From an uncultured Gemmatimonadaceae bacterium (lineage in GTDB: Bacteria > Gemmatimonadota > Gemmatimonadetes > Gemmatimonadales > Gemmatimonadaceae): a stretch of DNA of 64,000 nt. The notes under the pieces are model-generated. The model was not told the origin of the DNA. It ran no database searches and worked only from the letters and a program-made list of their open reading frames with translations. The stretch lies in NCBI GenBank assembly GCA_963817955.1, contig CAWFQK010000004.1:1152001-1216000 (forward strand). The letters are read 5' to 3'. Both the position numbers and the translations under genes were made by a program. Of this stretch, positions 43,923-49,276 are shown one piece after another. Position 1 is the first letter of the stretch; each line of letters begins with the position of its first letter.

Positions 43923-44327
43923 GGGACACGGGACACGGGACACTGAAACTCACAACTCACGACTCACAACTGGACACCCGAACCTCGCCGACCGGCGATA
44001 GTGGCCTGCGAGCCAGGCGCCCTGGTGCGCATGACCCGTATACTCACAACTCACAACTGACAACTGACAACTGACAACTGGTCACTGGTCACTGTACCCG
44101 CGATGGCTGTCATCTTGAGCGAAGGACCTGGGAGATCGGATTGGCTCCGTGTTTTGACCGGCGGGATGTCGCTGGCTGTCCCGTAGCGGTCGGCCCGCCG
44201 GTCGGCGAGTTCCGAGTTTCCAGTTGTGAGTTGTGCGTTGTGAGTTTCCCGTGTCCCGTGTCCCGTGTCCCGTGTCCCGTGTCCCGTGTCCCGTGTCCCG
44301 TGTCCCGTGTCCCGTGTCCCGTGTCCC
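43923..44327. repeat. Composite palindromic intergenic element: ~75 bp imperfect inverted arms built from GGGACAC and CACAACT heptamers around a dispersed core
   Basis: 43923-43997 is the near reverse complement of 44196-44270; (GTGTCCC)x11 at 44251-44327. Confidence 0.85.
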
Positions 44328-44341
44328 GTTACGCGGTCCCG

Positions 44342-45202
44342 CTATGCGTCTAACTCGATTCCCGCCGCACGTACGTTTTCTTCCAGGTGCTTCACCTGTG
44401 ATGTGCCGGGAATGACGAGCATGGCGGGTGAATGGGCGAGGAGCCAGGCGAGGGCGACTTGGAGGGTGCTCACGCCTTTTCGCTTCGCAATCTCCTGAAC
44501 CCATGACGGTGCGCCTCCCTCGAGCGAGCCGGCGGCGAGCGGAAACCAGGGGATGAAGGCCATGTCGTGCTCCTCGCAGTAGATGACGACATCTTCCCAC
44601 TGCCGCTCTGCGACGTTGTACTTGTTCTGCACAGAGGCGATGGGCACCACCTTGCGCGCCGCCTCGATCTCGTCAACACCGACCTCGGACAGACCAACGT
44701 GCCGCACCTTGCCTTCGCGCACGAACTCGGCGAGCGCACCGAATTGCTCGTCGGCCGGCACCTTCGAGTCTATCCGGTGGAGCTGCCATAGATCGATCCG
44801 GTCGAGCTTGAGGCGGCGCAGGCTTCCGTCGAGCGCCTTGCGCAGATACTTGGGATCGCCGTTCGGGGTCCATTTGTTCGGACCGGGCCGCTCGAGGCCG
44901 CCCTTCGTCGCGATGACGAGCCCCGCTGGGTAAGGACGCAGCGCCTCAGCGATGAGATCTTCGGAGACGTACGGTCCGTACGAGTCTGCAGTGTCGATGA
45001 AGTCGACGCCAAGTTCTGTGGCACGCCGCAGGACGCGGATCGCTTCGTCGCGATTTGCGGGCTGCCCCATGATCCCATGTCCGGTGATGCGCATGGCGCC
45101 ATACCCCATGCGATTCACCACAAGGTCGCCGCCGATGGTGATCGTTCCCGCCTGAGCGGCTGGCGTCTTTGCGCGGTCGTTGGTTGCGTCCTGTGTTTGC
45201 AT
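44342..45202 (-). CDS. Aldo/keto reductase
   Basis: [31 protein letters not shown] and IPGTS...HLEEN. Confidence 0.95.
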
Positions 45203-45336: not shown

Positions 45337-46158
45337 ATGACTTCAACACGCGATCGCGATTACGTGCTCGGCACGCATGACGAAGAGGTGATGCGCCTGG
45401 GCCTGCAGCACAACGTCTGGCGGCCACGCGCGCTGGCAGCGTGGTATCGCGCGGGCTTCAACGTTGGACAGACCATTCTCGACGTCGGCAGCGGACCGGG
45501 GTATGCAACCCTCGATCTCGCGGAGCTCGTAGGACCAACCGGACGTGTCATAGCGGTCGATCGGTCGCGCCGATTTCTCGACGCGCTGGAGGAGCGCCGC
45601 GATGCCCGTGGACTCGAGCATGTCCGCGTGATCGAAGCCGACCTCGACGACGTGTCCTTCGACGCGGCGAGCGCGGACGGGGCGTGGTGTCGCTGGGTGC
45701 TCGCCTTTGTGCCGCGCCCACGCGACCTGCTGGCGCGCGTCGCACGTGCGCTCAAACCAGGTGCCACGTTTGCAATCCATGAATACTTCGACTACGCCGC
45801 GTGGCATGTCATCCCACGCTCGCCGCTGTTCGAGGAATTCGTCAGCGCGACGATCGACAACTGGCGGCGCAGCGGAGGCGAACCGGACATCGGACTCGAG
45901 CTGCCGCGCTGGCTCGAGGAACTCGGTTTCGAGATCACAGTCATCCGGCCGATCATCGACGTGATCTCCGCCCGCGATTATGCCTGGCAATGGCCGACAA
46001 CCTTCATGCAGATCGGCTTGCAGCGGCTCGCCGAAACGGGCGCGATTCCACAAGATCGCGCCGCATCGATCGGCGCCGAGCTACGTCAGATTTCCGACTC
46101 GACAACGGCACGAATGATTACGCCTGGAGTGCTCGAGGTGGTGGCGCGGAAACGGTGA
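45337..46158 (+). CDS. Class I SAM-dependent methyltransferase
   Basis: [14 protein letters not shown] and ALKPG. Confidence 0.92.
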
Positions 46159-47275
46159 GCGGCGTTGGCCCGCGCTCGGCAATGAGGCGCAGCAGGTCGT
46201 TGTACACGCCGGCGGCGGTAACCGCCGGCCCGGCTCCTGGCCCGGTGATGACGAGTGGCTGCGCCTTGTAGCGCCTCGTGGTGAAGGAGAATTGGTTGTC
46301 GGTCCCATGCAGCAGGCTGAGCGGATCAGTCGCCGGTACTTCGGCCAGTCCCACGCGGACACTGCGACGGGTGGCGCGAGCGCGATAACGCAACACCGCA
46401 CCGCGCGAACGCGCCGCCTCCACTCGCGCCGCCCAAACAGCGTCGAGCTCAGGCATGCGTGCCAGGAATTCGTCGATCGCTACGTCCTGCAACGACCGCG
46501 GAACGAGGGATTCGACGCGCACCGCCTCGAGGTCGCCGCGGAACCCGATGATGCGTCCGAGAATCAGCGCCTTGCGCGCAACGTCGAGTCCAGACAGATC
46601 GACGCGCGGATCAGGCTCGGTGTATCCGGCCGCAATCGCATCACGCAGCGCCGTGGAGAAGCTGGTGCCTCGTCCGAGTTGGCCGAAGACGAAACCGAGC
46701 GTGCCCGACGGACAACCCTCGATGGCACTCACACGATCGCCGGCGTCGATCAGTTTGCGCAGTGTGTCGATGACCGGTAGTCCGGCGCCGACGGTGGCTT
46801 CGTGCAGAATTTCAGCACCGCCCGCCCGCGCGATTTCATGAAGCTGGTCGACACGCGCTTGCGCGCCGGCGATCGGCACCTTGTTCGCCAGGATGACGTC
46901 CCACCCACGTTCGAGCACGATCTCGAGGATGTGCTGCGTATCAGCGGCCGTTGCGTCGACGATCACCGGGCGTCCCGCAAGTCTCGCCGACATGAACGCG
47001 ACGGCGTCGGCGGGACTGGCGCGCAGACCGAGCGCGGAGGCATGCAGTGGCTGCCCGCTCTTCTTGTGCGCACAGAGCGCGATCAACGAGCGACGCGACA
47101 GGCCTTGGGGGTCGATCACATAGCCGGTTCGGTCCACCAGTCCGCATACCCGAAGGCGCGACGAAATGCCGTTCTTCGTGGAGGTGAGCTGGCCGAGCAG
47201 CTCTCGGCCGATCGACCCGACGCCCAACAGCACGACGTCGGTACTTCGGAATTCGTATCTGGATAGGTCGCTCAT
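46118..47275 (-). CDS. Stand-alone homoserine dehydrogenase (ThrA/MetL-type HSDH domain)
   Basis: GVGSIG, ANK, EATVGAGLPVI, SGTL, GYTEPDPRVDLSGLDVARK and GPGAG..VTA; GAGGAG RBS before ATG 47275. Confidence 0.92.
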   Translation of the reverse strand: MSDLSRYEFRSTDVVLLGVGSIGRELLGQLTSTKNGISSRLRVCGLVDRTGYVIDPQGLSRRSLIALCAHKKSGQPLHASALGLRASPADAVAFMSARLAGRPVIVDATAADTQHILEIVLERGWDVILANKVPIAGAQARVDQLHEIARAGGAEILHEATVGAGLPVIDTLRKLIDAGDRVSAIEGCPSGTLGFVFGQLGRGTSFSTALRDAIAAGYTEPDPRVDLSGLDVARKALILGRIIGFRGDLEAVRVESLVPRSLQDVAIDEFLARMPELDAVWAARVEAARSRGAVLRYRARATRRSVRVGLAEVPATDPLSLLHGTDNQFSFTTRRYKAQPLVITGPGAGPAVTAAGVYNDLLRLIAERGPTPLTVSAPPPRALQA

Positions 47276-47301
47276 GTCGTTCTCCTCGATCGTTGGCGCA
47301 C

Positions 47302-47338
47302 AAAGAAAAACCCCCGATTCTCGCGCGAGAATCGGGGG
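47302..47338 (-). terminator. Attenuator terminator upstream of homoserine dehydrogenase
   Basis: CCCCCGAUUCUC-GCGC-GAGAAUCGGGGG followed by UUUUUCUUU, about 27 nt before the start codon. Confidence 0.88.
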
Positions 47339-47367
47339 GGGTGAACAGCGGATGCGTGCTCGATGAG

Positions 47368-47460
47368 CTATGTGCGCATGCGTCGTCGTCCGTCCGTTCC
47401 TCTCGCGAGGCAAGCGGCCGCCATGGACATTCGCATCTGCATTTGACACATCGAGATCAT
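47368..47460 (-). CDS. Met-rich leader peptide (30 aa)
   Basis: MISMCQMQMRMSMAAACLARGTDGRRRMRT*: 7 Met, 6 of them in the first 13 codons; ends 30 nt before the terminator. Confidence 0.75.
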   Translation of the reverse strand: MISMCQMQMRMSMAAACLARGTDGRRRMRT

Positions 47461-47484
47461 CGATCGTCTTTGTTGATTGCATGA

Positions 47485-47522
47485 AAACAGAAAAGCCCGG
47501 ACGAGTGACAGCCGCCGGGCTT
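47485..47522 (-). terminator. Hairpin plus U-tract, probably the terminator of the upstream pseudokinase transcript
   Basis: aagcccgg...ccgggctt followed by ttctgtttt on the minus strand. Confidence 0.6.
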
Positions 47523-47620
47523 GTCGCGTTTTAGCACTTTGTTTTACGTGGCGGCAATGGGCGGCAAATCACCACGAGCATTCAGTTGTCCGGAGACATT
47601 AACCCAATTCCAACGATCGG

Positions 47621-49276
47621 TCAAGAGTGCACTGGCGCTGTACGCCCGCCGGTGGTGTCGGATGGCTGCGTATTGGCGCGTAGCATCTGCTCCAACTCTC
47701 TCACACGAGATGGCGACCAGTCAGCGAGGCACTGCGCCCGGACACGCGCGTACACCGGGCCATCCCCTACGTCGCGGCACGCGGCCTCGCGGTCGTTCAT
47801 CCACTTCCGTTGCTCGACACGCAGTTGCTCAACGGATGGCGGGTCGGGGTCGCCGGGCTGCGCATTTGCTCGACGTCGCAACGCCGAGATCAGCCGCTGG
47901 TAGACCGCGTTGAGCGGCCCATCGTTGCGCTCGATCGCCGCGGACAGACAGGCGCGCTGGTCCGCCGCGTCCGGCGCGTCGCACGCGGCGTCCGTGATCG
48001 CGGGCTTGGTCACGAGCGTGTCGAGCGAGACCGGCGGTGTGGGCGCCGGCATGCGGACTATCGGCGGGGTAATGCCGGGCTCGTGACGCCGCGTCGTGGG
48101 CGGCGCGATCGGATTTATCGGATACAGCGGAATGACGGTCGGCGGAATGCTCGCTGGCGGCGCGACCTGCTGCGGCAATGGTGCCATTGGTTGCGTCTCC
48201 GGCGTTGGGATTGGTGAGACGATCACCGGTTGCTGCGGCATGGGTGCGGGTGGCGAGTCGACGATCGCCGTGTCGCCCGGATGCAGCGCAATGTCGCCCG
48301 ACGCGAGGCTGCTGGTGTCGTTCAGCGTGCTACCGATCTCGTCGGAAGACGAGCGTTGGCGCAACAGCACCCCCAGCACACCGAGGATCGCGATCACCGC
48401 CACCGCCGTCGCGACGCGTGCGCCGAATCCGTACGGCCGCTTCACGATGATCACTGCGGGTTCGTCGGACGGCCCCGCCGGCATGGTGGATGCCGCAGCG
48501 GCCGGCATCGCCACCTCGACCGCAGCGCCAAGTGGGGCGAGCGACGCGATGTACGCCGCGACATTGCGCGGCGGAGCGCCGCGGTCGCAACGGATCAACG
48601 CGTCGGTTTCCTCTATGACGTGCGCCGGCAGGCCGGGACGCACGTCGGCGAGTGCCGGCGCCCGAGGTTCATTGCGGCGATGCCCGCTGAGCATCTCGTA
48701 CGCCAACCGCCCGATCGTTGCCGCGTCGTCGCAGGCGTCGGGGAGCGCGCCGGCGCGCAGCGGAACGGGATCGAGCGCCAGCAGCACCCGACCGCTTCCC
48801 TGCTGGAACACGAGCGCGTCCTCCGACACGTAGCGATGCACCACGTTATTGGTGCGCGCCCACTCGAGCACCGATTGCACCTGCTCGAGCGTCGTCGCCA
48901 CACGAGGCAAGGGCATAGGACCGGCGGTATTCACGAGCTGTCCGAGCGTGGAGCCTCGCACGCGCGCGCGCACGATCGCGAATGCGCCGTCGTCCAACCA
49001 CCGCCCCTCGATGACCGGAATCAGATTCGGATGGCGCAGCACGGTCAGCGCGCGCGCGTCCGCTGCGAAATGCGTGAGGCTGTTGTGGTCCCCGGTGCTG
49101 CCTGAACCGCTGGGCGGGCGCACCATCGTGATCGTGACGTCGCGGTTGAGCGCGAGATGCCGCGCGAGATACGTCCGCGAGTCGCCTGATCGGTGGAGCT
49201 CGGTCAGGATCTGATAATCATTCTCGAGCGTGCCCCACGCGGGAAACCGATCGTCCGTCGGGCTCTGCATGTGCAT
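47621..49276 (-). CDS. Ser/Thr pseudokinase - TM - Pro-rich linker - DUF1311/LprI-like domain
   Basis: Y.ILTEL, YLARH..LNRDV and LRHPNL; catalytic motifs degenerate; C-terminal C...LNAVYQRL...EQRKW..R...C. Confidence 0.8.
   Translation of the reverse strand: MHMQSPTDDRFPAWGTLENDYQILTELHRSGDSRTYLARHLALNRDVTITMVRPPSGSGSTGDHNSLTHFAADARALTVLRHPNLIPVIEGRWLDDGAFAIVRARVRGSTLGQLVNTAGPMPLPRVATTLEQVQSVLEWARTNNVVHRYVSEDALVFQQGSGRVLLALDPVPLRAGALPDACDDAATIGRLAYEMLSGHRRNEPRAPALADVRPGLPAHVIEETDALIRCDRGAPPRNVAAYIASLAPLGAAVEVAMPAAAASTMPAGPSDEPAVIIVKRPYGFGARVATAVAVIAILGVLGVLLRQRSSSDEIGSTLNDTSSLASGDIALHPGDTAIVDSPPAPMPQQPVIVSPIPTPETQPMAPLPQQVAPPASIPPTVIPLYPINPIAPPTTRRHEPGITPPIVRMPAPTPPVSLDTLVTKPAITDAACDAPDAADQRACLSAAIERNDGPLNAVYQRLISALRRRANAQPGDPDPPSVEQLRVEQRKWMNDREAACRDVGDGPVYARVRAQCLADWSPSRVRELEQMLRANTQPSDTTGGRTAPVHS

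Follow-up and report, generated by a model that had tools for sequence, protein, structure and literature searches.

Leader-peptide attenuation and SAM-II riboswitches are each already known kinds of regulation. In the Escherichia coli trp, his, thr, leu, ilv and pheA attenuators, codons for the amino acid under control are clustered in a short open reading frame (ORF), and four RNA segments can form 1:2, 2:3 (antiterminator) and 3:4 (intrinsic terminator) pairings; a ribosome that stalls on those codons is so positioned that segment 2 becomes free. Methionine genes, on the other hand, are usually under the control of MetJ/MetR, S-adenosylmethionine (SAM) riboswitches or T-boxes and not of leader-peptide attenuation. 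Here we analyse the leader of a stand-alone homoserine dehydrogenase gene (HSDH, hom) in a 64,000-nucleotide stretch of DNA from an uncultured Gemmatimonadaceae bacterium (contig CAWFQK010000004.1, positions 1,152,001 to 1,216,000). This whole stretch is called the window, and coordinates are counted from its first letter. Comparative evidence makes it quite likely that the hom leader is a SAM-II riboswitch in tandem with a ribosome-mediated attenuator that reads methionine (Met) codons, joined in relatives by cysteine (Cys) codons, in an upstream open reading frame (uORF).

Several described leaders resemble this arrangement in part. The alphaproteobacterial SAM-II riboswitches (PMC1273637), among them those of Sinorhizobium meliloti metZ and metA, likewise place an aptamer and then a terminator ahead of methionine genes. 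A second, unexplained terminator is reported downstream of the S. meliloti metA riboswitch, for which the authors could predict no second riboswitch or antiterminator (PMC9373788). The present locus belongs to the Gemmatimonadota instead, and its second terminator is part of a conserved uORF/antiterminator module. In Streptomyces lividans TK24, a leader peptide named ‘metL’ that ends in ...CMCRRMCAF was proposed ahead of metNIQ and called methionine-dependent; it is leaderless, and its authors found no typical intrinsic terminator (PMC8079986). Like the hom uORF, metL is a short Cys/Met-rich ORF ahead of a methionine gene, but as described it controls an importer and not biosynthesis, has no riboswitch, and bears no sequence relation to the hom leader. 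Attenuators that use Cys codons are represented by the polycysteine small ORFs of mycobacteria (bioRxiv 10.1101/834739), the cys leader ORFs of Actinobacteria (PMC1262725) and uORFC-8-2 ahead of cysS in Rhodobacterales, where a hairpin holding Cys codons is combined with an intrinsic terminator (PMC8632094). There too, sulfur-amino-acid codons in a uORF control downstream genes; as described, however, the codons are Cys only, the phyla and genes are others, and none stands in tandem with a riboswitch.

Two-input leaders also exist. Ahead of Bacillus clausii metE, SAM and adenosylcobalamin riboswitches stand in tandem, and the two terminator-based switches act as a two-input gate. The proposed second sensor at the hom locus, in contrast, is not a second ligand-binding RNA but a translating ribosome that would read tRNA charging. 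Compared to the classical attenuators, the differences are that the uORF uses Met codons (in relatives also Cys codons), which serve in none of those operons, and that it lies behind a riboswitch; in addition, most members of the new group have no Shine-Dalgarno sequence, and their stop codon lies 16–33 nt past segment 2, so that a ribosome at the stop would not cover that segment. The full-text literature that we searched, with subscription journals and bioRxiv supplements outside its scope, held no Met-codon attenuator with a terminator and no tandem of a riboswitch and a leader peptide. If our reading is true, this would be the first case on record in which a metabolite riboswitch stands in tandem with a ribosome-mediated attenuator.

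All features of the hom leader are on the minus strand, within the 345 nt that separate the end of the upstream gene (47621) from the hom start (47275). Read 5' to 3', they are a promoter-like sequence, the SAM-II aptamer, terminator 1, a uORF of 30 codons, terminator 2, a GAGGAG Shine-Dalgarno sequence and the hom ATG. The uORF (47460-47368, 30 codons plus stop, identified from the ORF list and from relatives) encodes MISMCQMQMRMSMAAACLARGTDGRRRMRT, with Met at codons 1, 4, 7, 9, 11, 13 and 28. Terminator 2 (47338-47302) consists of a stem at 47338-47311 and a U-tract at 47310-47302; it has 12 pairs (8 G-C), a loop of 4, the tail TTTTTCTTTG and an energy of -22.8 kcal/mol. A preliminary description of this DNA, made from the letters alone, had proposed a candidate Met-codon attenuator with this 30-codon uORF, six Met in its first 13 codons, the terminator and a complementary strand at 47407-47394, and all of these parts are in the sequence as it stated.

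That description had treated the leader as a lone attenuator with a possible promoter TTGCCG-N18-TAAAAC at 47557-47528, and had noted as a caveat a hairpin with a U-tract between this promoter and the uORF. The letters of the promoter are present but lie inside a SAM-II (SAM_alpha, RF00521) aptamer that cmscan places at 47585-47514 (37.1 bits, with the gathering score at 36; E 1.8e-6; model positions 1-79 of 79). In the alignment to the RF00521 consensus the P1 helix is CGUGGU/GCCACG, and the conserved letters of the loop (GAUUUG) and of the 3' tail (AAAG..GCUAAA) are present. The hairpin also exists, at about 47525-47479 (stem-loop about 47525-47490, U-tract 47489-47479, -16.9 kcal/mol), but it is not a separate element: it is terminator 1, the expression platform of the riboswitch, which makes the leader a tandem. 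The minimum-energy fold of 47592-47479, calculated with the pseudoknot left out, pairs aptamer GGUGAUUUGCCGCC with GGCGGCUGUCAC of terminator 1, and this pairing is a candidate antiterminator that SAM binding would remove. A cmscan of 46800-48000 at E <= 10 passed SAM_alpha alone, with no match to the Rfam Thr, His, Trp, Leu or Phe leader families or to the T-box. The sole Rfam match on the uORF-terminator part was NsiR1 (22.5 bits against 39), a resemblance of the terminator only.

A more likely promoter for the leader is the putative sigma-70-type sequence TTGACC-17-TAATGT at 47624-47596 (-35 at 47624-47619, -10 at 47601-47596). It lies 20 nt ahead of the aptamer P1 strand, and its -35 hexamer overlaps the stop codon of the upstream gene, which encodes an LprI domain protein (Pfam; 49285-47621, minus strand). 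A consensus scanner did not pick this promoter, whose -10 matches TATAAT at only 3 of 6 positions; sequences of the form TTGACN-17/18-(T/C)AnnnT stand 18-21 nt ahead of the aptamer in all 17 loci of the same riboswitch subtype in the genus.

As judged by comparison with relatives, the uORF-terminator element is real and conserved. RF00521 has 44 matches in 28 of the 31 genomes of the genus, 39 of them above the cut-off, and a hairpin with a T-tract directly follows the aptamer in 43. These aptamers fall into two subtypes, 27 of the metH type and 17 of the window (metX/metY/hom) type, the latter with the motif GTGGT[GC]ATTTGCCGCC. With a Met-rich uORF defined as at least 4 Met in 15 codons, such a uORF lies behind 14 of the 17 window-type riboswitches (4-9 Met per 15-codon stretch) and behind none of the 27 of metH type. 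Terminator 2 lies 24-34 nt past the uORF stop and is present in all 14 loci that have the uORF; the remaining three window-type loci have neither the uORF nor, at the equivalent place, terminator 2. Weak extra hairpin-plus-T matches at five of the metH-type loci fall, judged by their offsets, inside the metH coding sequence. The next gene in the 12 relatives with the uORF is metX (MetX is the best NCBIfam match; the sequences are partial). Three relatives encode MISMRRMQMRMSMAAASLARGTDGRRRMRT, which differs from the window peptide in 3 of 30 residues, and conservation extends to the C-terminal stretch GTDGRRRMRA.

The source genome itself holds three SAM-II aptamers, ahead of metH, the window hom and an O-acetylhomoserine sulfhydrylase gene (TIGR01326, 610.8 bits against 495.1). 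The metH locus (PF02574) has an aptamer and terminator only. The sulfhydrylase locus repeats the tandem layout of the window: a near-consensus promoter (TTGACA-18-TATACT), aptamer, terminator 1, the uORF MRLTPLAMPMCMCLMCVPPYGRDGRVPRTRAGD, terminator 2, a Shine-Dalgarno sequence and the gene. Codon clusters of this kind are rare in the genome (4.53 Mb, 64% G+C). Across all six frames, only four stretches have at least 6 in-frame ATG within 13 stop-free codons, the window uORF among them, and only 18 have at least 6 Met/Cys within 9 codons; both uORF-bearing leaders of the source genome are among these rare Met- or Met/Cys-rich stretches.

The codons also keep their frame. We counted triplets in the sensor part of 29 leaders, one further locus (L101) being left out as the script chose another ORF there. 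ATG triplets after the start numbered 117, 1 and 0 in frames 0, +1 and +2, a count that is biased in favour of our reading because frame 0 was taken as the frame richest in Met/Cys, though not to the extent of 117:1. TGY triplets outside ATGY, which encode Cys, numbered 39, 6 and 5, and both Cys codon spellings are in use. Within the genus, insertions and deletions in the uORF are multiples of 3, while those past its stop are of 1, 2 or 5 nt. The number of Met codons per uORF ranges from 3 to 15 with the module retained throughout; in one genome the run ahead of the hairpin has expanded to 15 Met codons, all in frame (MRTIMSMTMRMMRMMRMTMRMTMRMTMRMTT...).

The RNA between the sensor and terminator 2 can adopt two alternative pairings. 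The sensor, or segment 1 (47451-47422, defined from codon positions and folds), contains Met codons 4, 7, 9, 11 and 13. Segment 2 (47410-47390, defined from the alternative pairings) is made up of the 3' half of an inner hairpin and GGAACGGACGG, and segment 3 is the left arm of terminator 2. The right arm of terminator 2 is in effect duplicated in segment 2, which has two possible partners: segment 1 together with the inner hairpin, or segment 3. The antiterminator is formed by segment 2 (inner-hairpin 3' half and ...ACGGACGG) and the terminator 2 left arm; the strand CGCGAGAGGAACGG (47407-47394) forms with that arm the best duplex predicted between these regions. In the terminated state, sensor AUGCG (47436-47432) pairs with CGCAU (47382-47378).

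Both states are supported by an alignment of 24 sequences. For the terminated state, comprising the AUGCG/CGCAU helix, the inner hairpin and terminator 2, 86.8% of the cells are paired against 31-53% in slid controls, 16 of 26 pairs have changed on both sides and none of 500 shuffles was as good, a shuffle count that overstates independence since the leaders are related. For the antiterminator, pairing reaches 86% of the cells (48-67% in slid controls), with changes on both sides in 6 of 12 pairs. All 24 sequences can form a segment 2/3 duplex of -15 to -36 kcal/mol. Its energy is -23.7 kcal/mol with a leader's own segment 3, -21.2 with those of other leaders and -17.3 with shuffled ones, a modest gain. 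The spacing is also kept: in 23 of 23 leaders, 11-23 nt (median 17) separate the end of the last Met/Cys codon from segment 2, with 17 nt in the window, and the distance from the uORF stop to terminator 2 is 22-33 nt. The comparison that the preliminary description had suggested, a search upstream of related genes for conserved Met-rich uORFs with covarying pairs, thus has a positive outcome in the genus and in at least four families, compensatory changes included, and the core of its attenuator claim is supported by the co-occurrence of uORF and terminator 2, the kept ATG frame, the covariation and the presence of hom orthologs in metX-metB-hom behind a like leader.

We propose that two independent premature-termination switches act in series on one transcript. 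In switch 1, with SAM bound, the aptamer pseudoknot would hold the strand otherwise able to pair with terminator 1, this terminator would form and transcription would stop at about 47479. Switch 2 would act on transcripts that pass switch 1, through the five Met codons among uORF codons 4-13. With ample Met-tRNA, the ribosome would reach the stop codon, segment 1 would re-pair with segment 2 behind it, terminator 2 would form and transcription would stop at about 47302. When charged elongator Met-tRNA is scarce, a ribosome would stall on the Met codons and occupy segment 1 together with the 5' half of the inner hairpin; segment 2, left exposed, would then pair with the terminator 2 left arm, and RNA polymerase would continue into hom. 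Because the switches are in series, hom expression would need both low SAM and poor charging of Met-tRNA, and in relatives also of Cys-tRNA. The comparison shows the sequence elements with their conservation, co-occurrence, frame signal and covariation; that the uORF is translated, that ribosomes stall on it, that folding takes this order and that SAM is bound are inferred. One step differs from the preliminary description, in which full translation was held to cover the antiterminator strand: the uORF stop lies 19 nt past that strand, and re-pairing behind the ribosome is more likely.

To follow the element beyond the genus we used two covariance models, one built from the 14 genus leaders and a second from 24 leaders. 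Of 151 genomes sampled from the family, 17 hold matches to the first model, and of 151 sampled from the phylum, 27 hold matches to the second. On inspection, genuine members belong to at least four families of Gemmatimonadota, with the module either alone or behind SAM-II. Outside the genus the uORFs mix Met and Cys codons (...MSMPMPMCMC..., MGCHACTMCMCMCCM..., ...LMCMCMMCQC...), so that the Met codons claimed in the preliminary description hold for the window but its idea of a Met-specific device does not hold for many family members, in which Cys codons are interleaved. The genes behind 17 non-genus loci include hom (2), MetX-like genes (4, one of them the degenerate locus L086) and metY-type genes (5), as well as aspartokinase, a ThrC-like pyridoxal-phosphate enzyme (at L102, behind a leader with SAM-II and a Met/Cys uORF), FMN reductase and a RimK-like ligase. 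L086 has a hairpin and terminator and no ATG-rich ORF, and is not counted as a leader. In another genus a tandem leader stands directly ahead of a differently built hom.

Of the 17 loci, 12 have a SAM_alpha match upstream, which scores above the cut-off at 9. The remaining five, all of metY type, have no SAM_alpha match at E <= 0.05, and at L083, L097 and L098 a promoter-like TTGACA was seen by eye closely upstream. Since such leaders also occur without SAM_alpha, the uORF-terminator unit is a module of its own. We consider it fairly probable that leader-peptide attenuators of this type, with Met/Cys codons and intrinsic terminators, form a family in the Gemmatimonadota that has not been described before, and that its members serve either singly or, behind SAM-II, as part of a two-input gate.

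Among 23 new loci inspected from the second scan were seven Met/Cys leaders, three His leaders, one Leu/Val leader and two leaders of glutamate synthase genes; L116, L118, L123 and one place without a locus were left out of this inspection. The other ten were rejected as ordinary gene ends, or a tRNA, with terminators, and from the first scan L087-L091 and L093 were rejected since the module is missing there and the sequence appears to be coding. When one genome per species was scanned with a pattern, the full leader was recovered in 8 of at least 80 loci, all titled Gemmatimonadaceae, Gemmatimonadetes or ‘bacterium’; the other 72 were rejected, by our own reading of the listed peptides, as they are without the peptide of the module. 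L124, L125, L128 and about 30 other Burkholderia loci from that scan, from many species, share a conserved ...GRRAEMRMRMG... stretch in a frame of variable length, which is probably non-coding or antisense, unrelated to the leader and a chance match to the pattern.

The His leaders (L104, L105 and L106, hit regions about 1500-1655) have uORFs with His runs (HHRHGH, HHHHGH, HPHHHHG) and a terminator ahead of hisG, in other families. At L107 a Leu/Val-rich uORF and terminator precede an isopropylmalate-synthase-like gene, with a hairpin-terminator layout like that of the Met leaders. Given these uORFs of like layout, classical-type ribosome-mediated attenuation appears to be in use in the phylum. 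L115 and L120 share a leader ahead of glutamate synthase large-subunit genes (GATase_2), composed of TTGACGAATGCA...TGCATAATAAT, a small ORF and a terminator.

Several observations weigh against ribosome-mediated attenuation at the hom leader. The window uORF has no Shine-Dalgarno sequence ahead of its ATG, and by eye the same is true of about 22 of 29 uORFs; the main genes behind the leaders, unlike most of the uORFs, have strong ones. Met codons also lie within conserved helices (AUGCG with CGCAU; CUCGAUG with CAUCGAG), and their conservation is therefore partly structural. Starvation for Met also depletes initiator tRNA, which would block translation of the leader and favour termination. 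Of the 24 antiterminator duplexes, that of the window has the least favourable energy (-15.1 kcal/mol), and 16 of the 23 partners taken from other leaders pair better; in a comparison with shuffled partners it gave -19.0 kcal/mol against -15.0 +/- 3.0, and 107 of 1000 shuffles equalled it. Moreover, in 10 of 14 leaders the minimum-energy fold of RNA that ends ahead of the right arm of terminator 2 already contains the antiterminator without a ribosome, and once the RNA is full-length, equilibrium folding favours the terminator in all 14, even under a stalled-ribosome constraint. The energies are close (-40.6 kcal/mol for the 1:2 fold and -44.4 for the antiterminator-containing nascent fold). 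The preliminary description had also proposed folding the alternative structures: both do pair across the 24 sequences, but equilibrium folds do not separate the stalled and free states, and the choice must therefore be kinetic, set by the order of folding. Order of folding is held to decide in the trp attenuator too.

One alternative explanation is that the RNA between the two terminators is an untranslated structured element, a second ligand riboswitch or a protein-binding leader, in which the open frame is incidental. The strong, covarying structure, the AUG triplets in the AUGCG/CGCAU and CGAUG/CAUCG helices and the many uORFs without a Shine-Dalgarno sequence would all suit such an element, and stop-free frames of 30 codons are common at 64% G+C. 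It would leave unexplained, however, the confinement of ATG triplets to one frame, the expansion of Met codons in frame with the module kept, and the Cys codons in both spellings that replace or join them in other lineages. A purely structural RNA is not expected to keep frame periodicity while its repeat number changes five-fold. The sensor part, moreover, has little conserved structure beyond one helix of 5 bp and matches no Rfam family. We regard an untranslated element as unlikely.

It could also be speculated that the uORF is translated without sensing Met-tRNA, either as a general sensor of translation or coupling or through a nascent peptide that arrests on SAM or another metabolite, as in the SAM-dependent arrest of nascent Arabidopsis CGS1. 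The conserved C-terminus of the peptide is what an arrest peptide might show, and the neighbouring riboswitch means that SAM is already read by the system. This is unlikely, as the C-terminal codons overlap segment 2 and the helices, so that their conservation is explained at the RNA level, while the sensor part varies freely except for its Met/Cys codons; in addition, Met/Cys genes match the codon identity of their leaders, as hisG does with His codons.

A third possibility is a TRAP-like protein, loaded with Met, SAM or Cys, that binds the spaced AUG/UGY triplets and sets the antiterminator or terminator without a ribosome. The triplets do repeat at short regular spacings (3, 6, 9 nt) just ahead of the antiterminator strand, which recalls the (G/U)AG repeats of the Bacillus subtilis trp leader. 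TRAP sites use spacers of 2-3 nt, whereas the spacings here are always multiples of 3 and come with an in-frame ATG start and a stop at a conserved place, and the His and Leu leaders of like layout point to a ribosome-based mechanism in the phylum. A protein of this kind is therefore very improbable. Finally, a chance ATG-rich stretch beside an ordinary terminator, for which only the modest energy of the window's own antiterminator would speak, is refuted by the comparative data: the cluster is rare in the genome, kept in other families and, within the genus, at 13 further loci, and co-occurs with terminator 2.

Ribosome-mediated attenuation by Met codons thus remains the reading that we prefer, and the gene behind the leader fits it. 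The hom product (47275-46118, minus strand, 385 aa; Pfam PF00742, PF03447) ranks highest in NCBIfam as the HSDH part of bifunctional aspartokinase-HSDH (AK-HSDH) I/II. In a relative whose whole operon was read, the genes are metX, cystathionine gamma-synthase (metB; TIGR02080, 571 bits against 505) and hom. The window sequence from terminator 2 through the Shine-Dalgarno sequence (47287-47282), the ATG (47275-47273) and about nine codons (MSDLSRYEF) aligns with the metX start of a relative (MSELPDYEV), so that both the Shine-Dalgarno sequence and the start codon are of metX 5'-end origin; from ACCGAC onward it aligns with hom of that relative, with the junction at about 47250-47242. No ortholog of the relative's metX or metB was found in the source genome, which is 94% complete (best tblastn identities 31% and 43%). 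From this metX-like 5' end, the hom remainder and the missing orthologs, it appears that a deletion of about 2.1 kb, removing metX-metB, fused the leader and first metX codons to hom.

The source genome also encodes a bifunctional aspartokinase-HSDH, with 40% identity to the window HSDH. Together with the metX-metB-hom operon of relatives, this second enzyme indicates that the window HSDH is the methionine-operon isoenzyme, in agreement with the Met-dedicated role given to it in the preliminary description. An Rfam scan of 16 hom-containing loci of relatives gave no match at E <= 0.1, where hom is the third gene and the leader lies beyond the 1.5-kb flank or below the stricter filters.

The tandem would combine a cofactor signal (SAM) with a signal of translation capacity (Met-tRNA) on one transcript. 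If confirmed, it would be a natural case of methionine sensing through elongation stalling despite the shared need for initiator Met-tRNA, and it raises the question of how such a device works when the starved amino acid also initiates the leader peptide. Sulfur amino acid synthesis would also come under the control of tRNA charging, in a phylum where T-boxes do not play such a role. At about 170 nt the module is compact and suited as an experimental model, and it marks genes of a putative Met/Cys regulon in the poorly studied Gemmatimonadota: hom, aspartokinase, the ThrC-like enzyme, the RimK-like ligase and the FMN reductase. At L080, L082 and L085, a RimK-like ATP-grasp gene (two loci by eye; the family match is from L080) or an NADPH-dependent FMN reductase gene (one locus) lies directly behind a leader with SAM-II and a Met/Cys uORF, which suggests that these genes act in sulfur or methionine metabolism.

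Two further observations concern the DNA downstream of the leader. hom and a convergent methyltransferase ORF (45337-46158; Methyltransf_11/25) overlap at their 3' ends, over 41 nt (46118-46158). At about 44140-44350, between an aldo-keto-reductase-like ORF and a large upstream gene, several frames give repeated VSRVPCP or GHGTRDT units, which suggests a short tandem DNA repeat.

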